From: Escherichia phage vB_VIPECOOM03
DNA: 64,000 nucleotides
Sequence record: OQ721911
Direction: 5' to 3' (one strand)
Shown here piece after piece: positions 1,583 to 21,163 of this stretch (the stretch's first letter is position 1; every line of letters begins with the position of its first letter). The notes under the pieces are model-generated. The model was not told the DNA's origin and did no database searches. It saw only the letters and a list, made by a program, of their open reading frames with translations. A program made the position numbers and the translations under genes.

Positions 1583-2866
1583 ATGGCTAAAATCAACGAA
1601 CTTCTGCGCGAATCAACCACAACGAATAGCAACTCAATCGGTCGCCCAAATCTCGTTGCTTTGACTCGCGCTACCACTAAATTAATATATTCTGACATTG
1701 TAGCAACGCAAAGAACTAATCAACCTGTTGCTGCTTTTTATGGTATCAAATACCTTAACCCAGATAACGAATTTACGTTTAAAACTGGTGCTACTTACGC
1801 TGGCGAAGCTGGATATGTAGACCGAGAACAAATCACAGAATTAACAGAAGAGTCTAAATTAACTCTCAATAAAGGCGATTTATTCAAATATAATAATATC
1901 GTTTATAAAGTATTAGAAGATACACCATTTGCTACCATTGAAGAAAGTGATTTAGAATTAGCTCTTCAGATTGCAATTGTTCTTTTAAAGGTTCGTCTAT
2001 TTTCTGACGCAGCGTCAACAAGCAAATTTGAAAGCTCTGATAGTGAAATTGCTGATGCTAGATTCCAGATTAATAAATGGCAAACCGCGGTTAAATCTCG
2101 TAAACTTAAAACTGGCATCACAGTTGAATTAGCACAAGATTTAGAAGCAAATGGATTCGATGCTCCTAATTTCTTGGAAGATTTGCTTGCAACTGAAATG
2201 GCGGATGAAATCAATAAAGATATTCTACAGTCTTTGATTACAGTATCAAAACGCTATAAAGTTACAGGAATTACTGATACTGGATTTATTGATTTGAGTT
2301 ATGCATCTGCGCCTGAAGCTGGTCGTTCATTATACCGAATGGTGTGTGAAATGGTTTCGCATATCCAAAAAGAATCAACTTATACTGCAACGTTCTGTGT
2401 TGCTTCAGCTCGTGCCGCTGCGATTCTTGCTGCATCAGGTTGGTTAAAACATAAACCAGAAGATGACAAATATCTTTCACAAAATGCCTACGGGTTCTTA
2501 GCTAATGGTTTACCGCTTTATTGCGATACTAACAGCCCATTAGATTATGTAATCGTTGGTGTAGTAGAAAATATCGGTGAAAAAGAAATTGTTGGATCAA
2601 TTTTCTATGCTCCGTATACAGAAGGTCTTGACTTAGATGACCCTGAACATGTAGGTGCATTTAAAGTTGTAGTTGATCCAGAAAGCTTACAACCATCTAT
2701 CGGTTTATTGGTTAGATATGCTTTATCTGCAAATCCTTACACTGTAGCAAAAGATGAAAAAGAAGCAAGAATAATTGATGGTGGAGACATGGATAAAATG
2801 GCGGGTCGTTCAGATTTGTCTGTTTTATTAGGTGTTAAATTACCAAAAATTATCGTCGATGAATAA
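1583..2866 (+). CDS. 24: Head vertex protein gp24
   Basis: 427 aa, MAKINELLRESTTTNSNSIGRPNLVALTRATTKLIYSDIVATQRTNQP matches T4 gp24 and is a gp23 paralog. Confidence 0.95.
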   Translation: MAKINELLRESTTTNSNSIGRPNLVALTRATTKLIYSDIVATQRTNQPVAAFYGIKYLNPDNEFTFKTGATYAGEAGYVDREQITELTEESKLTLNKGDLFKYNNIVYKVLEDTPFATIEESDLELALQIAIVLLKVRLFSDAASTSKFESSDSEIADARFQINKWQTAVKSRKLKTGITVELAQDLEANGFDAPNFLEDLLATEMADEINKDILQSLITVSKRYKVTGITDTGFIDLSYASAPEAGRSLYRMVCEMVSHIQKESTYTATFCVASARAAAILAASGWLKHKPEDDKYLSQNAYGFLANGLPLYCDTNSPLDYVIVGVVENIGEKEIVGSIFYAPYTEGLDLDDPEHVGAFKVVVDPESLQPSIGLLVRYALSANPYTVAKDEKEARIIDGGDMDKMAGRSDLSVLLGVKLPKIIVDE

Positions 2867-2872
2867 AACAAA

Positions 2873-2895
2873 GGGACCGAAAGGTCCCTTTTTAT
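2873..2895. terminator. Bidirectional hairpin GGGACC-GAAA-GGTCCC between convergent genes 24 and rnlB
   Basis: Perfect stem-loop with T-run, located between two convergent stop codons. Confidence 0.6.
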
Positions 2896-3900
2896 TTAAC
2901 TTACCAATTCAATCCAAGCCGGACGAAGTACATCTTGTACCATTTTAACTAATTCCTTTTTAATCAAAGAAGGATTATCCGCTTGAGTTAAAGTAATACC
3001 TTCACGAGAAGTTTCTTCCAAAATATCTTGAACAGTTAGTCCCATCACCTTTCCAAAATCCTTTGGACCAATTTCGCCAATTTTAGAAATAACGTTATTT
3101 ACTCGGTTCAGTGTAACGTAGCAAGCTAAAATTCCCAGCAATTTATTATCAGCTTCTGACAGCTCAACTTTAGCTTTAATAGGCTTATCAGACTTTTTCT
3201 TTTCGCTAAATTTAGAGTTCTTGCATTTAATCGCTACACGATTGCCATTAGGCATCCAAGAAGGATAACAAGGTTTCAATACATATCCTTCAGCAGTAAA
3301 TACTTCGCCTTTTGCTTCGGCATTCCAAACGCATTTATTTGCATCAACTAATCCAGCGTGGTCTACCGTAAAATTATAATCCTGGACGACAGAATCTAAA
3401 TCATTTGGCAATTTAATAAGGTCTTCAAATTTACCACGACCTAAAAGTGGAGCCATTTTAAATTTAAATGTATTACAGAATGATTCCATCATATAATCAT
3501 CGACATAAGTCACATCACCACTTTCGGTAGTAACAATAATGTCAAATACATAAAAATCTTTATCGCCATAATCGACATTCTTCTGAATGCCAGGTCCAGC
3601 AAATTCACCGAAGACTTGATAAGATACAACTGCTGAAGTTTCCATAATATCTTGTACTGCTTTAATGGAATCAGCATAATTCTTTAAAATAATTTCATAC
3701 CCAAAGAAATCTTCAGCAGGAAGAATCAGTCCAGTACGTTTAGCACAAGTTGCTTTATCACGCTCAATAATCAATGAAAAGTTTGTACCGTGAATCTTTT
3801 CACGAGCTACCCATTCGCCACCAGTCAATCCTAAACTGTAAAGTTTTTCAATGAATTTAGAATTGTAATGATTTTCAAGACTGCTATACTTTTTAAACAT
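2896..3900 (-). CDS. rnlB: RNA ligase 2 (Rnl2)
   Basis: 334 aa, [42 protein letters not shown] contains the ligase motif I lysine (KIHGTN); near-identical to T4 Rnl2 as recalled. Confidence 0.95.
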
Positions 3901-3909
3901 AATTAATCC

Positions 3910-4188
3910 TCAAAATGTAATTTCTAACCAATCACCATCACGCTGGTCACTATTGACTTTAAAGCTAAATCCTTCTTTTCTCAGCCAATCACCAATTTCT
4001 TCAGTAATCAATTTATCGCGAGCAGTACAATAATAACTAAAATATGTTTTACCTTGTTCAGCTGCTTTATTAGCAAGTTCCGAAAAATCTTTAATAAAAC
4101 ACTCTAGTTTAAACTGTTTACTTTTAAGTGCTTTTTCGCGCAATTGATTAGCAAAAGATTCATTTTCATAAAGATCATACTGTTCCAT
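3910..4188 (-). CDS. Hypothetical protein (position of T4 24.2)
   Basis: 92-aa ORF packed between rnlB and the next ORF by overlap; synteny only. Confidence 0.55.
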   Translation of the reverse strand: MEQYDLYENESFANQLREKALKSKQFKLECFIKDFSELANKAAEQGKTYFSYYCTARDKLITEEIGDWLRKEGFSFKVNSDQRDGDWLEITF

Positions 4189-4390
4189 TTTTCACCTTTT
4201 TATTAATATGTCTTTTTCTATAGACAACTTTTTCTCGAGTCTCAAATTTATTCTTAGCAGTCATAGCTCGAGCCCATAATACAGCCACTTCCTTTGCCTG
4301 TAAGTTCAATTCACGAGCAATTTCAATGAATGACTTTCCAGACTCATGGAGTGTAAACACCACAACCTCAGTTCTCATAATCAATCTCAT
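4175..4390 (-). CDS. Hypothetical small protein with possible HTH (position of T4 24.3)
   Basis: 71-aa ORF; the segment SFIEIARELNLQAKEVAVLWARAM resembles a helix-turn-helix. Confidence 0.5.
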   Translation of the reverse strand: MRLIMRTEVVVFTLHESGKSFIEIARELNLQAKEVAVLWARAMTAKNKFETREKVVYRKRHINKKVKNGTV

Positions 4391-4459
4391 GTTATCGAGT
4401 TGGTGCCATTATATACATCGTTTTCTGACTATGTTTTGCGTGCTTTCAAAATGAAGAAA

Positions 4460-4473
4460 GGGGCCGAAGCCCC
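4460..4473 (-). terminator. Hairpin GGGGCUUCGGCCCC after hoc
   Basis: Perfect stem with UUCG tetraloop 6 bp beyond the hoc stop, followed by a U-rich tract on the - strand. Confidence 0.55.
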
Positions 4474-4478
4474 TGAGA

Positions 4479-5609
4479 TTATGGATAGGTATAGATGATA
4501 CCAGTTTCTAAAGCAGTTTTATGAATGATGTATCCATTACGCGATTCTTGAACATCAACTTCCGGATAGTCTTTCATCATCTTCTGAAGAGTGTAACGAT
4601 GCAAGTAGTACTTACTATCTGGGTCGTCAGTTTTCCAATCTTTACCTTCTTCAGTCATTTTTTGGATTTCATCCATAACCCACCAACCGCACCAGATATA
4701 AGCTGAAGTACGATGTGGAAGAGGATGAACATAAGGTAATTCACCTTCTGGTTCCGGAGCAACTTTATCAGTTACCTGAACTTGACCTGTTGTTTTAACT
4801 GTTTTGCTATCATAGTCAGTTGCTGTAACGACAGCAGTAACTTCAATAGTTTGACTTCCAACAGATGAGGTATCGATAGTATATACGTTAGTTGACCCTT
4901 CTACAGGAGAAGAATCTTTCTTCCATGAGTAAGTAATTTGTGCTGCGTCAGGTGCGCCAGTAACATTAGCAGTAAATGTAGCCGAAGCATCTTGCTGAAC
5001 GTTAATAGAAGGAGGAGTCAATGTAACCTGTGGATTCATTGTCTTCTTATTAACCGTCAATGATACTTCATTAGAAGTAACTTCCTTTGCATCATAATCT
5101 GTCGCGGTTACTTGAGCTACGCATTTAATTCTTTTTACTCCACTTGTAGTTGGAGTATAGCTAAATGTAGCGGAAGTTGCTTCACTAACAGGAGAATCAT
5201 CTACATGCCACTGATATGTAGCAGATGCACCTGATGGTTGAGAAGCTAAGACAGCAGTAAATTCAACAGGAGTTCCAATTACTCCAGCAGCAGGACTAGC
5301 AGGAGTTACAGCTAAGGTAGTTGTCTGTGTCTTATTTTGAACTGTGATAGTTGTAGAAGCTTCTGCTGTTTCAGCCTCAGCTTCTGGAACTGTGTTTGTT
5401 GCAACTACTTTAATAGTCTTTTGACCGGCAGGTCCTTTTAGTACATAACTAAAAGTTGCTTCAGTTCCATCTTGTGGAACATCATCTACAGTCCAAGCAT
5501 AGGTAATAGTTCCACCTCCAGTTTCACCACTGGGTGTAGCAGTAAACTGCTGAGTCTGATCTATAACTCCAGTAGGTGTTTTAGGAGTTATATCAACTGT
5601 AAAAGCCAT
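4479..5609 (-). CDS. hoc: Highly immunogenic outer capsid protein Hoc
   Basis: 376 aa, MAFTVDITPKTPTGVIDQTQQFTATPSGETGGGTITYAW...YVHPLPHR...IWCGWWVMDEIQ; Ig-like repeats and capsid-binding C-terminus as in T4 Hoc. Confidence 0.93.
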   Translation of the reverse strand: MAFTVDITPKTPTGVIDQTQQFTATPSGETGGGTITYAWTVDDVPQDGTEATFSYVLKGPAGQKTIKVVATNTVPEAEAETAEASTTITVQNKTQTTTLAVTPASPAAGVIGTPVEFTAVLASQPSGASATYQWHVDDSPVSEATSATFSYTPTTSGVKRIKCVAQVTATDYDAKEVTSNEVSLTVNKKTMNPQVTLTPPSINVQQDASATFTANVTGAPDAAQITYSWKKDSSPVEGSTNVYTIDTSSVGSQTIEVTAVVTATDYDSKTVKTTGQVQVTDKVAPEPEGELPYVHPLPHRTSAYIWCGWWVMDEIQKMTEEGKDWKTDDPDSKYYLHRYTLQKMMKDYPEVDVQESRNGYIIHKTALETGIIYTYP

Positions 5610-16388: not shown

Positions 16389-16392
16389 CAAT

Positions 16393-16410
16393 GGGGACCG
16401 AAAGGTCCCC
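16393..16410. terminator. Bidirectional hairpin GGGGACC-GAAA-GGTCCCC between gene 54 and the convergent - strand ORF
   Basis: Perfect 7-bp stem followed by a T-run. Confidence 0.6.
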
Positions 16411-16416
16411 ATATTT

Positions 16417-16707
16417 TTATTTGCGGAATGAAATAAAAGCAGCAACTGAAGCAACTAAACTGTCTTCAATATAAACTTCAATTTTTACCGGAGCTTCTGA
16501 TTCAAATTTACCTGTTACTACACCTTGGAAAATGCTTTCAGTCTGTTCTGGCTTTGAAAAATTTTCAGAAGGAAAAATTCCGAACTTTTTATCTGTTCCA
16601 AAAATTTTGATAAATTCATCATAAACTGCTTCATTAAAAGCATTATCAGCAGGAATAACGCCTTCAACTACAAGTTCTTGACCTAAAAAGCGCAAAGAAG
16701 ATTTCAT
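16417..16707 (-). CDS. Hypothetical protein (alt.-3 position)
   Basis: 96-aa ORF preceded by GAGGA and an early promoter-like element. Confidence 0.6.
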   Translation of the reverse strand: MKSSLRFLGQELVVEGVIPADNAFNEAVYDEFIKIFGTDKKFGIFPSENFSKPEQTESIFQGVVTGKFESEAPVKIEVYIEDSLVASVAAFISFRK

Positions 16708-16768
16708 TTTGTGTTCCTCATGTTATGTAAGTAAAATTACTATAACACAACACGAGGGACTTGTAAAC
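16708..16768 (-). promoter_or_regulatory. Early promoter-like element with leader (GTTTACA -35, TATAGT -10, GAGGA SD)
   Basis: - strand reads GTTTACAAGTCCCTCGTGTTGTGTTATAGTAATTTTACTTACATAACATGAGGAACACAAAATG; about 55 bp are nearly identical to the element upstream of alc at 32478-32535. Confidence 0.6.
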
Positions 16769-18825
16769 TACATTTTGAACTTTTTAGACATTCCGTTGAT
16801 GTTAACCAAAGAAGCCAAGATTTGAGAAACTTCGTTTTCCTCTTCTTTTGATTCTTCTACAAGGAATTGATTAAATCCAGCCATTGGACGAACTTCACCA
16901 GTTTCCATCAGATGGTCGCCATCATATACCGATTCTTCTAATTGTTCAGAAGGAGGAACGATTGTGCCTTCGACTAGATACTTATTATAAGCAGTTTCTT
17001 TCATCATGTACGTACTCACTTTATTAATCTTCAGTAGAATTCCACGTGGTAGAATAATTTCAGCTTCTGATGGAAATCCTGATAAATGACCTGGAACGAT
17101 AACTTTGATTCGCTCAGCTCCTTTAATTACCATACCAACGCTAGTTTCAGCATCTTCATTCGCATAAGCAGAGCGACTGCCCATATGCATCAAATCTTCT
17201 GCGTCAACTGAACCTTCTCCTTCACCAGAAAATACTGCACCGGAATCATCTAGAGCCATATAGTTTTTACCATACTCACCGAAGATATTTGGTTTAAGCG
17301 ATGTGGATACGAAGTTCTTGAAATAAAACATTTTATTTTCAATATTATGGCGTAAAGTTTTGAAAGTAACTTCTTGTCCACGGTAAAGTGTAGTTCCTGG
17401 AGGAAGAACTGAACCTTTAGCAAAGGCAGAATCCATTGTCTCGATGTGTTTAATAGCTCGTTCCATATATTCTTCACGGGTAGAATCTGGTTTACCTAAA
17501 AGGAACGAGTTCATTTCAACATATGAATCTGCACAATAATCTTCAATTACATCAGATTCAGCTTGAGTCAGTCCTTTTGGAGTTACTTCGGTGCTTGCGT
17601 ATTCATATGCCTGGGCGGCAGATTCATTAATCAATTTATAAATGCCATTCATGACAAATTGAATAATAGCTACCTTTTCATCTGGCGTGGCTTTAGAACC
17701 TTTAACTAAATCATTAACAATTTTCTTAATAACATCAAAGCTGTTAGAAATATTAATATCAGAAAGATCACTTAAAATTTTATCAGTTTTATAATCAAAA
17801 AATTCTTTATTCTTTAAATATTCTTGAGAACCTTGATATGTTATATCGCTCTGTAATTTAATAGATGGATCACGTAAACGTGCATGAGCCAATGCAATAT
17901 GATTTCGGAAGCTTTCTAGTTCATAATCGTTAGATTTAAAACGAGAAGCGCTTCTCATACCACCTATAGCTCCTTTGCTGAAGTTTGAACCAATTTGAAT
18001 AACGCCAGAGTTCATTGATCCTTCTGCTTTATATACCGGAACTTTAGATTCAAACTCTTGATATTTCTTAGCAGCGAAGCTATCGCCCTGAAGTGAAGCA
18101 TCAACAGTAGAATATTGAGCTTGTGCTGCTAATCGACGACTAATTTTAGTTTTCTGAATAACAGCTTGATCCGTGCGCTTATCATTTTCTAAAGCAATAG
18201 AAGCAGCAACAGCAACAGCTTTAGGAACAGCATTACCCGTTTTAACGTCTACATAAACATCACCAACCTTTGATTCAACTTTTGTGAATAACTCAGTTGA
18301 AATAGGAGGTACACCTGGAATGTCTTCTAAATTGGCATTTTTACGGTAAACCATAATATATGCATACTTTTTATCGTAATCCCAGATTTCCTTTAAAAGA
18401 ACATATCGACCTGCTCCTTTAGTACGTACTAAACGGTCGGCAATAACTTGCATTTGACGAGCTGCGCCGTTTGTTTTACTCTTTAGTACGCGGAATAAGC
18501 ATGCATCAATTTTATACTGTTTCATTGTTTGAAGAGCAGTATCAAAAACCGCATTAATGACACCAATTGGGTTTCCACCCAAGTTTTTAAGTTTAACTAA
18601 TGATAGTTTTTCATTGACACCTATCATTACGATATGCATCATTTTATCGCCTGGCTTAACGTTTTTATTTGTATCACCACCAGAGGTGTATGTACAAAAT
18701 CTAAATCCAGGAAGCACACTTTCTTCACCGGCTTGAATAGCAAAAATTTGAGGTATTTTATGCTTAGGATTTAAGTTAACAACCGGCGCCGAAGCGCCGT
18801 CAAATAATTCTGTAATAAGTTCCAT
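16768..18825 (-). CDS. Alt-like ADP-ribosyltransferase paralog (685 aa)
   Basis: N-terminus MELITELFDGASAPVVNLNPKHKIPQIF parallels Alt; retains R (LYRGQ), STS (FVSTSL) and ExE (SEAEIILPRG) motifs and the shared C-terminal YDGDHLMETGE. Confidence 0.85.
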   Translation of the reverse strand: MELITELFDGASAPVVNLNPKHKIPQIFAIQAGEESVLPGFRFCTYTSGGDTNKNVKPGDKMMHIVMIGVNEKLSLVKLKNLGGNPIGVINAVFDTALQTMKQYKIDACLFRVLKSKTNGAARQMQVIADRLVRTKGAGRYVLLKEIWDYDKKYAYIMVYRKNANLEDIPGVPPISTELFTKVESKVGDVYVDVKTGNAVPKAVAVAASIALENDKRTDQAVIQKTKISRRLAAQAQYSTVDASLQGDSFAAKKYQEFESKVPVYKAEGSMNSGVIQIGSNFSKGAIGGMRSASRFKSNDYELESFRNHIALAHARLRDPSIKLQSDITYQGSQEYLKNKEFFDYKTDKILSDLSDINISNSFDVIKKIVNDLVKGSKATPDEKVAIIQFVMNGIYKLINESAAQAYEYASTEVTPKGLTQAESDVIEDYCADSYVEMNSFLLGKPDSTREEYMERAIKHIETMDSAFAKGSVLPPGTTLYRGQEVTFKTLRHNIENKMFYFKNFVSTSLKPNIFGEYGKNYMALDDSGAVFSGEGEGSVDAEDLMHMGSRSAYANEDAETSVGMVIKGAERIKVIVPGHLSGFPSEAEIILPRGILLKINKVSTYMMKETAYNKYLVEGTIVPPSEQLEESVYDGDHLMETGEVRPMAGFNQFLVEESKEEENEVSQILASLVNINGMSKKFKM

Positions 18826-18828
18826 GAT

Positions 18829-20922
18829 TTATCCTTGAACGAACTTGTAAGGCATGTTTGTAATATCTATGCAAGACGCAATAATTCCAAGAGATGATTC
18901 TGCTTTCTGTTTAACATTTGATGAAACAAATGATGCAAAGTCAACTCTGTCTTCTATTTCAATATCACCTGTCATTGCAACCAATTCACCAGTTTCCATT
19001 AAATGGTCTCCATCATAGATTACCGATTCGGTGAGTTCTTCCGTAGTCATAACTTCAGCTTGAATGAGTTTTGTATTATTAGATGTTGTTCCGTCATTAT
19101 TGGAAGCATCAGTTATTTTATTAACTTTGACCATCAATCCGCGTGGTAAAATAACTTCAGCTTCAGTTGCTATTCCGAGACTTCCTGGATATACAACATT
19201 AACTTTATGAGCTCCATCAATTGCCCATCCTATTTGAACTTTAACGTATTCAGGATTTTCTTTATACGCTCTTATTTCGTTTGGATTAATAGTTATTCCT
19301 TCTTCATTTTTATCAACTGTTAATTCATTGCGAGCTTCTGGTTCTAAAAGACCAATACCAGCATGCGTAATTCCAAAACGTCCAAAAATGATAGGAGTTA
19401 AAGAAGTAGATACAAAATTTCTGAAATAGAACACTTTATTTTTAACTAGTGCTTCGTATATAGGAGCAGTCATACTTTGAGCACGATAAACTGTAATGCC
19501 TTCTGGTATACGGTCACCATTTTCAAAGGCTGAATCTAAATTATTTATCGCAGATTCAATTTCTTTTTCACTCATTACATCATATCGTTCTGGATTATAG
19601 CGTCCTAAAAGAAGATTATTGATGTCAGTATATCCTGATCCACAATACTCTCTAATGCCGCGCTTTTGCGATGGAGTATATTTAGAACCATCACGGGCAA
19701 TAGTAATATCAATCATTGGACCTGCACCAATTCCAGAAAAGCTATAAATCATTCGTTTGAGGAATTTAGTTTTTGCTGCGTTCCAGGAATTTTTAGTTAT
19801 TTCTTCCCAGACTTCATCTGGCTGTCCTTTACGGGTTTTATTATGTTTATCAAGCCAAGTATCTTTATATTCTTCAAAGAATTTATTAATAGCTGCTGCA
19901 TACTTCTCTAAACATTTTATTGAAGTAGTTGGTTCATTTTTGATCGCGTTAAAAATTACATCTTTAATTTTTTCAGAAACTTCATTAACCTCACTTTTTG
20001 AAAAGAATTTATAGTCATAGTGAAGTTCATCTGCAGTCCCTTCGGCAATAATTTTTGCTGCCTTAGTTTTAGAAGCTAATGAATTAATTCCAAGTTTCAT
20101 TTCTTCCGCTTCGGGAATTAAAGGAGCTGTAGCAGGTTTATTGAAATTAGCTGCAGTAGATTCATACTTCTGGAATAATTCACTTTCAAATCTAGAAGAT
20201 TCCAATGACTGACTTTGTGCAATTGCTCTACGGGAAATTTTAACTTTAACTATTACAGCTTGGTCAGAACGTTTATCGTTTTCTTGCGCAATAGATGCTG
20301 CAATTGCCTCATTTTTAGTTACTTGAGCTCCAGTATCTTTATTGATATAAACATCGCCGACCTTCGATTCAACTTTAGTAAAGAGCTCGGTACTAATTTC
20401 TGGAACTCCTGGAATGTCTTCTAGTGATACATTTTTGCGATGTATAAGAATATATGCATACTTTTTATCGTAATCCCAGAGTTCCTTAAGAAGGACGTAT
20501 CTGCCACCTGAACGACTACGGATAAGTCTATCAGCAATAACTTGAATTTGTCGAGCTTGACCAGCAGTTTTAGACTTAAGAATACGGAGCATACAGGCAT
20601 CAATTTTATACTGACGCATCGTCTGCATTGCAACAGTAAAAACTGAATTGATATAATTAATTGGGCTTGGACCGAGACCTTTTAATTTAGCAATTGAACC
20701 TTTAGCAGTTAATGTAAAAGGAACAATATGCATCATTTTATCGCCCATTTTTAAATCGCGATTAGTATCACCTCCAGATGTATAGGTACATAAACGAAAG
20801 CCTGGTTGTTCAATTGCGTCATCAACATGAACTGAAAAAATTTGCGGTATTTTCTTCTTTGGATTTAAGTTTGTAATCGGAAGAGTAGTATCTTCGTCAA
20901 ATAATTCTGTAATGAGTTCCAT
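18829..20922 (-). CDS. alt: Alt ADP-ribosyltransferase (packaged internal protein)
   Basis: MELITELFDEDTTLPITNLNPKKKIPQIFSVHVDD matches T4 Alt; R (VYRAQ), STS (FVSTSL) and ExE (TEAEVILPRG) present; start placed at the second ATG with better SD spacing. Confidence 0.9.
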   Translation of the reverse strand: MELITELFDEDTTLPITNLNPKKKIPQIFSVHVDDAIEQPGFRLCTYTSGGDTNRDLKMGDKMMHIVPFTLTAKGSIAKLKGLGPSPINYINSVFTVAMQTMRQYKIDACMLRILKSKTAGQARQIQVIADRLIRSRSGGRYVLLKELWDYDKKYAYILIHRKNVSLEDIPGVPEISTELFTKVESKVGDVYINKDTGAQVTKNEAIAASIAQENDKRSDQAVIVKVKISRRAIAQSQSLESSRFESELFQKYESTAANFNKPATAPLIPEAEEMKLGINSLASKTKAAKIIAEGTADELHYDYKFFSKSEVNEVSEKIKDVIFNAIKNEPTTSIKCLEKYAAAINKFFEEYKDTWLDKHNKTRKGQPDEVWEEITKNSWNAAKTKFLKRMIYSFSGIGAGPMIDITIARDGSKYTPSQKRGIREYCGSGYTDINNLLLGRYNPERYDVMSEKEIESAINNLDSAFENGDRIPEGITVYRAQSMTAPIYEALVKNKVFYFRNFVSTSLTPIIFGRFGITHAGIGLLEPEARNELTVDKNEEGITINPNEIRAYKENPEYVKVQIGWAIDGAHKVNVVYPGSLGIATEAEVILPRGLMVKVNKITDASNNDGTTSNNTKLIQAEVMTTEELTESVIYDGDHLMETGELVAMTGDIEIEDRVDFASFVSSNVKQKAESSLGIIASCIDITNMPYKFVQG

Positions 20923-20945
20923 CATATCCTCTCTAGTGTTTATTC

Positions 20946-20953
20946 TATTTATA
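20946..20953 (-). promoter_or_regulatory. Late promoter TATAAATA for alt
   Basis: TATAAATA on the - strand 24 bp upstream of the alt ATG. Confidence 0.65.
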
Positions 20954-20961
20954 AAATTAAA

Positions 20962-20973
20962 GGCCCGAAGGCC
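20962..20973 (-). terminator. Hairpin GGCC-UUCG-GGCC after the upstream early transcription unit
   Basis: Stem-loop followed by UUUAAUUUU on the - strand, just upstream of the alt late promoter. Confidence 0.5.
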
Positions 20974-20974
20974 T

Positions 20975-21163
20975 TTAATAATCTAGTGGTAAGAGAGTAC
21001 GGTATATTTCAAACTTCGGACCTTTTTCATAGGCATCAAATGTTTCTGTAAATTTATTATAAGCATATGCATCTACAAATTCAAGAACGATTTGTGATAC
21101 AGAAGTAGAAACATCTCCACCTTCTTTTTGAGCCACGACAATTGTTTCTAAGTAAGCTTTCAT
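20975..21163 (-). CDS. Hypothetical small protein
   Basis: 62-aa ORF whose start overlaps the gene 30 stop (ATGA). Confidence 0.5.
   Translation of the reverse strand: MKAYLETIVVAQKEGGDVSTSVSQIVLEFVDAYAYNKFTETFDAYEKGPKFEIYRTLLPLDY

Follow-up and report, generated by a model that had tools for sequence, protein, structure and literature searches.

The best described relative of the genes considered here is Alt of phage T4, a head-core protein that is present in about 40 copies and is ejected into the host (PMC9958956), where it ADP-ribosylates host proteins, among them RNA polymerase alpha (PMC9958956; PMC9503650). T4 Alt is non-essential, and the protease gp21 removes its N-terminal propeptide and, according to mass spectrometry, also trims its C-terminus (PMC9026906). 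T4 further encodes ModA and ModB, ADP-ribosyltransferases with an R-S-E signature that take part in host takeover (PMC9503650). Here, we analyzed a window of 64,000 nucleotides (nt) from Escherichia phage vB_VIPECOOM03 (sequence record OQ721911), in which an alt gene is directly followed by a second, full-length gene of the Alt family, Alt2.

Duplicates of alt have been recorded before, under several names. A passage of Nolan et al. (2006) describes alt.-1 and alt.-2 of T4 as paralogous duplications of alt and mentions a duplicate of full length in phage 44RR (PMC1524935), and a 2026 paper refers, in the passage concerned, to 'two paralogous Alt-like proteins' of 43% identity in 6phi13 and SHFML-11 (PMC13600099). 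In genome records, Alt2 is annotated as 'alt.-2; apparent insertion in alt.-2; also similar to alt' in T6, as alt.-2 in RB68, as altb in JS98 and as 'ADP-ribosyltransferase Alt2' in the BASEL phages Bas35, Bas37, Bas38 and Bas43, while in T2 it is an unnamed gene of 685 amino acids (aa).

In vB_VIPECOOM03, the two genes lie on the minus strand as adjacent open reading frames (ORFs) of 697 and 685 aa separated by 3 nt. This is how a first-pass annotation, made from the sequence without database searches, had read them, and it agrees with both the ORF list and the GenBank coordinates. The upstream gene opens with ATGATG; counted from the first ATG it spans 18829..20925 and encodes 698 aa, counted from the second (20922) it encodes 697 aa, and the latter is GenBank's annotated start for alt. 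The Shine-Dalgarno sequence of Alt2, AAGGA, overlaps the 3' end of alt, which together with the short spacing suggests co-transcription and possibly translational coupling. The gene order, gp48, gp54, alt.-3, the 685-aa gene, alt, alt.1 and DNA ligase, is that of the T4 alt region, and the slot that holds the pair, from gene 30/alt.1 to alt.-3/gene 54, is ordered as in T4, T2 and T6. Over 5 kb the region is 100% identical to that of the Tequatrovirus Escherichia phage vB_VIPECOOM01, in whose record both genes are labelled 'Alt-like RNA polymerase ADP-ribosyltransferase'.

A full-length Alt2 was found in 401 phage records, T2 and T6 included, with 94-100% nucleotide identity and nearly all of them at 94-96%. 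T2 and T6 have an identical layout, with an alt of 2094 nt, a paralog of 2058 nt and a gap of 3 nt. At the protein level, Alt2 is 97-98% identical to the products of the T2, T6, RB68, AR1, Bas35, Bas38 and Bas43 genes (98% for the BASEL phages). Compared with alt.-2 of T6 and RB68, Alt2 of the BASEL phages and the 685-aa gene of T2, the gene is the same in length (2058 nt), spacer (3 nt) and slot (alt.1 - alt - X - alt.-3 - gene 54), and with 94-96% nucleotide and 97-98% amino acid identity we see no substantive difference. The same tandem in the same slot is formed by alta and altb of the Dhakavirus phages JS98 and JS10, at ~50% identity and with proteins of 695 and 708 aa. The downstream gene is almost certainly the known Alt2/alt.-2 gene. 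The first-pass annotation had itself allowed that it might be the ordinary, already described alt.-2, and this caveat applies, as the gene is annotated in T2, T6, RB phages, JS98 and BASEL phages: the alt-Alt2 pair is real and was correctly read, but it is already annotated and named and is not new. The upstream copy, which had been taken for canonical Alt, is indeed an Alt ortholog, but it belongs to the T2/T6-type allele, being 98-99% identical to Alt of T2 and T6 and only 72% identical to Alt of T4.

Catalytic signature and divergence of the two copies

Aligned end to end by BLASTP, Alt and Alt2 are 41% identical (E = 3e-160), a similarity far beyond chance. In blocks of 40 residues, the identity amounts to ~56-75% over residues 1-238, to 17-26% in the centre and to ~33-46% in the catalytic part, so that the divergent centre suspected for the downstream copy is borne out by the pairwise alignment. 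Both proteins exceed the gathering score of 23.4 bits for PF03496 (ADPrib_exo_Tox), Alt with 129.2 bits (E = 1.7e-37) and Alt2 with 72.4 bits (E = 4.1e-20), and both match PHROG 802 over the whole protein (E = 4.8e-273 and 5.7e-255, respectively). A sequence search of the PDB returned only weak CDTa and iota-toxin matches and no solved Alt-family structure for Alt, and no match for Alt2; NCBIfam held no model for either. Homologs of Alt2 carry the precomputed Pfam domain PF26846.

All motifs on which the earlier reading was based (MELITE, VYRAQ/LYRGQ, STS, EAEVILPRG/EAEIILPRG and YDGDHLMETGE) are present, and their coordinates were verified by translation. In agreement with that reading, the translations and the alignment show the R-S-E signature intact in both copies, with the Arg, the S-T-S and the E-x-E all in place and no loss in the downstream copy. 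Across 22-24 members of the Alt family, among them the two Dhakavirus paralogs, residues R482, S507, S509, E587 and E589 of Alt2 never vary, and T508 is retained in 90% or more. Y430, N439 and L442 of the NAD site are invariant as well, and so are Y634-D637, E641, G643 and E644 of the YDGDHLMETGE motif, with T642 again at 90% or more. In E-x-E motifs the second Glu is the catalytic residue, and E-x-E instead of Q-x-E marks arginine specificity. The E-x-E of both copies aligns with the E-x-E of CDTa. Its second Glu aligns with the residue changed in the E577A variant of T4 Alt, with an offset of +1 that assumes numbering from MMELITE; this variant abolishes in vivo ADP-ribosylation (PMC11404850).

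In a structural model, the catalytic domain of Alt2 is predicted to adopt the C3/Vis/iota-toxin fold and is recognized as an ADP-ribosyltransferase fold. The centre is helical, with a pLDDT of 80-92, while the C-terminal tail is disordered in the model. The central region is a candidate for a target-recognition module. To toxins of the R-S-E clade (C3, Vis, iota (Ia), CDTa and VIP2) the sequence identity is 13-24%; unlike these, Alt2 carries a helical linker and an N-terminal domain specific to phages, and its delivery would start from the capsid instead of relying on secretion or a pore component. With T4 Alt it has in common PHROG 802, PF03496, the N-terminal domain, the MELITE propeptide, the R/S-T-S/E-x-E residues and the C-terminal tail, but it is only ~42% identical, its central region is unrelated and the position three residues ahead of the first catalytic Glu (-3) is Phe instead of Pro.

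This position -3 also differs within the pair, with Phe in Alt2 and Ile in Alt. CDTa carries an aromatic Tyr here, like the Phe of Alt2. In C3-like toxins, the loop position before E-x-E is tied to substrate recognition, and the residue at -3 may be a determinant of substrate choice.

Age, selection and loss of Alt2

Selection was estimated from eight phages: vB_VIPECOOM03, T2, T6, RB68, AR1, fPS-65, pSs-1 and slur04. Across these, the Alt2 proteins are 97-100% identical at a synonymous divergence of 0.07-0.28, and the ratio of nonsynonymous to synonymous divergence (dN/dS) is 0.043, with both alt allele classes above this value (0.070 and 0.066). By region, the dN/dS of Alt2 is 0.019 for the N-terminal domain, 0.073 for the centre, 0.041 for the catalytic domain and 0.014 for the C-terminal tail. 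Against its close orthologs, Alt2 shows 11-21 amino acid substitutions, none of them at the catalytic or terminal motifs. Both genes are intact, and strong purifying selection acts on them. The suggestion that the downstream copy is probably active is strengthened by the dN/dS of ~0.04, in the catalytic domain as in the whole gene, and on the strength of these sequence features we consider it very probable that Alt2 is catalytically active.

Between Alt and Alt2, the synonymous divergence (dS) is saturated (>1) in all regions, including the N-terminal domain (dS 1.0-1.4). Recent gene conversion was considered for the alike N-termini and rejected, as this part, with a dS of 1.39 and 68% nucleotide identity, is saturated too; because its synonymous sites are saturated, the N-terminal likeness is kept by selection. 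In JS98, alta is closer to Alt (49% versus 35%) and altb is closer to Alt2 (51% versus 37%), with VYRAQ and LYRGQ kept respectively. This pairing indicates that the duplication is older than the Tequatrovirus-Dhakavirus split, and the pair arose by an old duplication of a gene for a head-packaged ADP-ribosyltransferase. A central region of the Alt2 type is present at 90% identity or above in 401 records and at ~47% in 44 others, of which the sampled ones are JS98-like (Dhakavirus).

The locus also bears traces of recombination. Phage ECML-134 has a lone 686-aa gene in the slot (2601-4661 of its locus) that corresponds to Alt up to about residue 157 and to Alt2 thereafter, and four metagenomic proteins are likewise Alt/Alt2 chimeras with other crossover points. 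The locus is recombinationally active, and as the ECML-134 slot holds only this one, chimeric gene, repeated unequal recombination removes the catalytic half of Alt. At least five crossover points of such chimeras fall within the shared N-terminal domain, near residues 40, 110, 157, 170 and 220. Of the alt gene itself there are two alleles, a T2/T6 type of 697 aa and a T4 type of 682-685 aa, which share only 72% identity and whose divergence is concentrated past residue 240. Both alleles adjoin a near-identical Alt2 (97-100%), and hence the 'canonical' copy is the more variable one.

The first-pass annotation had left open whether T4 and T2 carry the large paralog. T2 and T6 do, in intact form, but T4 keeps only a relic. 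After the alt stop codon of T4, 348 nt match nt 1-348 of Alt2, which make up its codons 1-116, at 95.7-95.8% identity. Owing to a frameshift near codon 56, they form two separate ORFs, alt.-1, which corresponds to Alt2 codons 1-56, and alt.-2, which corresponds to codons 62-116. Past nt 348, 1.69 kb are missing, and the T4 sequence resumes with the final few codons of Alt2 and the intergenic sequence (96.6% identical). The alignments on either side share 9 nt, the direct repeat CTAAAAAGT, which is typical of a deletion between short direct repeats; Alt2 of T4 was thus destroyed by a 1.69-kb deletion between the copies of CTAAAAAGT. In the T4 GT7 record the relic stretch lies at positions 1678-2024 of the locus.

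In accordance with an origin from Alt2, PHROG 23015 (alt.-1) and PHROG 15247 (alt.-2) match Alt2 at e-40 and e-38 and Alt at e-21 and e-19. The T4 record itself annotates alt.-1/alt.-2 as 'an old duplication of the first part of gene alt', and ELT1 and Pu-Krd-SF5 carry the same relic as T4. The T4 ORFs are therefore the homologous 5' part of a gene that is destroyed there and intact here, and as they form a frameshifted and deleted relic, the intact state is ancestral and that of T4 derived.

Proposed expression, packaging and targets of Alt2

Both genes had been placed behind one late promoter, and the sequence fits this proposal: between 16.7 and 21 kb no TATAAATA was found besides the box in front of alt, the two genes are only 3 nt apart, and no terminator-like site was found between them. 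The octamer is not enriched in the window (10 found versus 8.8 expected), and the case for it is based on its position and on the region upstream of T4 alt, which has the same promoter and start-region sequence plus one extra 5-nt copy of GAATA in the spacer. A separate late promoter for Alt2 was considered and rejected, as the stretch from 16.7 to 20.9 kb lacks a further TATAAATA and sigma-70-like sites are at background level (17 found versus 18.9 expected).

In the mechanism that we propose, alt and Alt2 would both be transcribed late from the single TATAAATA promoter, and both proteins would enter the prohead core via their common, ~70% identical N-terminal domain of 238 residues. The prohead protease gp21 would cut both at MELITE and within the conserved C-terminal tail. 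Putative gp21 sites of the form (L/I)-x-E are conserved in both copies, namely MELITE at the start and QLEE/ELTE and HLME in the tail, and by analogy with T4 Alt the tail of Alt2 is probably a gp21-processed propeptide. Alt and Alt2 would then be injected together with the DNA, and Alt2 would use NAD+ for the arginine ADP-ribosylation of host proteins other than those modified by Alt, with its specificity set by the unrelated helical centre and the different loop ahead of E-x-E. With one packaging route, the two proteins might compete for limited head slots.

We infer co-packaging, gp21 processing and injection from the MELITE start, the N-terminal domain and the L-x-E tail that Alt2 has in common with T4 Alt, and distinct targets from the central helical region and the loop before E-x-E, which differ from those of Alt. 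On these grounds packaging and injection of Alt2 seem probable, and a target set of its own is rather to be expected than not. Taken as a whole, the sequence makes it reasonably likely that Alt2 acts as a second ADP-ribosyltransferase that is specific for Arg, packaged and injected, and directed at targets of its own.

Transposon libraries of T4 and Bas37 (preprint 10.1101/2025.11.20.689424) provide data on a corresponding pair, bas37_0032 'Alt2' (2058 nt) and bas37_0033 'Alt' (2097 nt), which we equate with the present locus by gene lengths, gene order and annotation. According to the text of the preprint, which does not mention Alt2, Alt aids the evasion of the defence system Mokosh type I and T4 Alt outperforms Bas37 Alt (10.1101/2025.11.20.689424). 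In the K-12 library, insertions were recovered at 164 of 179 TA sites in Alt ('Non-essential') and at 116 of 164 in Alt2 ('Intermediate'), with ~4-5 times fewer reads per site in Alt2 than in Alt (10.1101/2025.11.20.689424, Extended Data Table 7). In the presence of cloned Mokosh type I, the mean count of Alt insertions dropped from 213 to 0 (log2 fold change (log2FC) -7.74, adjusted p 0.00000), while that of Alt2 insertions rose from 41.6 to 105.3 (log2FC +1.32, adjusted p 0.00000). On the clinical strain CFE331, the log2FC was -1.56 for Alt and +0.12, not significant, for Alt2 (same table). As the insertions in the two genes changed in opposite directions, Alt2 does not substitute for Alt under Mokosh type I, and its loss is mildly favourable where Alt is needed. 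Competition for head slots might be an economical account of the enrichment of Alt2 insertions; the enrichment could also have another cause, for example an Alt2 activity that provokes Mokosh.

These data bear on the possibility that Alt2 is active and packaged but redundant with Alt, modifying the same targets (e.g. RNA polymerase alpha) and serving dosage or backup. The catalytic signature and the termini are common to both copies, T4 lives with Alt alone, alt being non-essential there (PMC9026906), and ECML-134 lives with one gene that has only the Alt2-type catalytic part. However, identity between the catalytic domains is only ~40% and no alignment is possible over the central 180 residues, yet within each paralog the phages keep 97-100% identity and paralog-specific signatures persist into Dhakavirus, and the intact Alt2 of Bas37 did not rescue the Alt insertion mutants under Mokosh type I, where the two genes responded with opposite signs. 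We therefore consider redundancy unlikely. It is also improbable that Alt2 is active but not packaged, acting late in the producing cell or being released at lysis. Expression from a late promoter would fit a late intracellular role equally well, and we found no detection of Alt2 in virions by proteomics in the literature, nor any virion data on two copies in the papers on fPS-65 and an E. coli O177 phage or in the proteome paper on a Klebsiella T4-like phage. Yet the most constrained and most Alt-like parts of Alt2 are the very ones that in T4 Alt are linked to its incorporation into the head and its processing (PMC9026906): the N-terminal domain combines a dN/dS of 0.019 with ~70% identity, the tail combines a dN/dS of 0.014 with the invariant positions of YDGDHLMETGE, and the MELITE start equals the cleaved propeptide of Alt. 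A catalytically dead structural paralog, i.e. a head-core filler or pseudo-enzyme, would be in keeping with the view of Alt as a core protein in T4 (PMC11404850) and with the Pfam score of Alt2, which at 72 bits is below the 129 bits of Alt; given the intact catalytic positions described above, we regard it as very improbable.

Several points weigh against a packaged Alt2 with targets of its own. The late promoter is identified by its match to the consensus, and the argument for packaging and injection is one of sequence conservation. In the searchable literature on Alt2 we found genome annotations and passing remarks but no enzymatic, virion-proteomic or target study. No more than 22 sequences went into the structural model, and the Bas37 locus is linked to the present one by gene lengths, gene order and annotation. 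On CFT073, CFE299, CFE336 and CFE331, insertions in Alt2 showed no significant change (log2FC 0.11-0.36; 10.1101/2025.11.20.689424, Extended Data Table 7). Finally, T4 does without Alt2 with no obvious harm and ECML-134 does without the catalytic part of Alt; each copy is thus dispensable in some lineages, which leaves room for partial redundancy.

Neighbouring features and meaning of the pair

The coordinates of the features are collected in the table. The terminator-like hairpin upstream of alt is identical in T4, and the annotation of fPS-65 has a terminator at this position. For fPS-65, an early promoter has been predicted at the spot equivalent to the early-type site behind Alt2, which would drive alt.-3 separately. 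In the Bas37 library, insertions in alt.-3 (bas37_0031) were depleted on the uropathogenic strain CFT073 (log2FC -2.70, adjusted p 0.02) and not on CFE299, CFE331, CFE336 or with cloned Mokosh type I (10.1101/2025.11.20.689424), and alt.-3 may be a host-specific counter-defence factor.

Table. Features of the alt-Alt2 locus in the window (positions of the whole stretch)
Feature	Position	Strand	Remarks
alt (copy A), 697 aa, T2/T6-type allele	18829..20922	-	ORF list, GenBank annotation, BLASTP, Pfam, PHROG
Alt2 (copy B; alt.-2 / altb), 685 aa, 2058 nt	16768..18825	-	ORF list, BLASTP, Pfam, PHROG
Intergenic 3-nt spacer (atc)	18826..18828	-	alt stop to Alt2 start, TAA-atc-ATG
Alt N-terminal domain	20209-20922	-
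Alt catalytic domain	~19042-19686	-
Alt2 N-terminal domain, residues 1-238	18112..18825	-	~70% amino acid identity to Alt; starts with MELITE (I-T-E gp21-type cleavage motif)
Alt2 central all-helical region, residues 239-415	17581..18111	-	unalignable with Alt
Alt2 ADP-ribosyltransferase domain, residues 416-625	16951..17580	-
Alt2 C-terminal tail, residues 626-685	16771..16950	-	YDGDHLMETGE and L-x-E motifs
MELITE start, Alt	20905-20922	-
MELITE start, Alt2	18808-18825	-
YRAQ, Alt	19477-19488	-	holds Arg480
YRGQ, Alt2	17374-17385	-	Arg482 at 17380-17382
S505-T-S507, Alt	19402-19410	-
S507-T-S509, Alt2	17299-17307	-
Residues before E-x-E, Alt	19165-19173	-	Ile at -3 from first catalytic Glu
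Residues 584-586 before E-x-E, Alt2	17068-17076	-	Phe at -3 from first catalytic Glu
EAEVILPRG, Alt	19138-19164	-	E587-A-E589 inside
EAEIILPRG, Alt2	17041-17067	-	E587-A-E589 at 17059-17067
YDGDHLMETGE, Alt	18985-19017	-
YDGDHLMETGE, Alt2	16894-16926	-
T4-type late promoter box TATAAATA	20946..20953	-	consensus and position match; 24 nt before alt ATG
Terminator-like hairpin AAAGGCC-TTCG-GGCCTTT	20959..20976	-	overlaps alt.1 stop codon, just upstream of alt promoter
alt.1, 62 aa	20975-21163		full-length match to PF24647 'Phage blade protein', E = 1e-29
Early-type promoter-like site (TTTACA, 17 nt, TATAGT, TG extension)	16739-16767	-	starts at last base of Alt2 stop codon
alt.-3, 96 aa, DUF5498	16417..16707	-	downstream neighbour of Alt2
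Strong bidirectional hairpin terminator	16391-16412		between alt.-3 and convergent gene 54

ModA and ModB of T4, compared here by description and not by sequence, differ from Alt2 in being ~200 aa in size, early, made after infection, unpackaged and encoded elsewhere. Alt2 might be counted as a fourth ADP-ribosyltransferase of T-even phages, absent from the T4 paradigm of Alt, ModA and ModB, that is co-packaged with Alt, competes with it for head slots of fixed number and acts on different host targets, a combination that we put forward tentatively and hold to be possible rather than likely. If it were true, carrying Alt2 would be a trade-off, useful on some hosts but diluting the anti-Mokosh activity of Alt, and this would explain its loss in T4, the recurrent chimeras of the two copies and the enrichment of Alt2 insertions under Mokosh type I.

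The value of the pair lies not in a discovery but in a pointer to an understudied known gene with an undiscussed phenotype in a public dataset. [quoted passage not shown] Hence, the usual count of three ADP-ribosyltransferases in T-even phages understates the natural repertoire.

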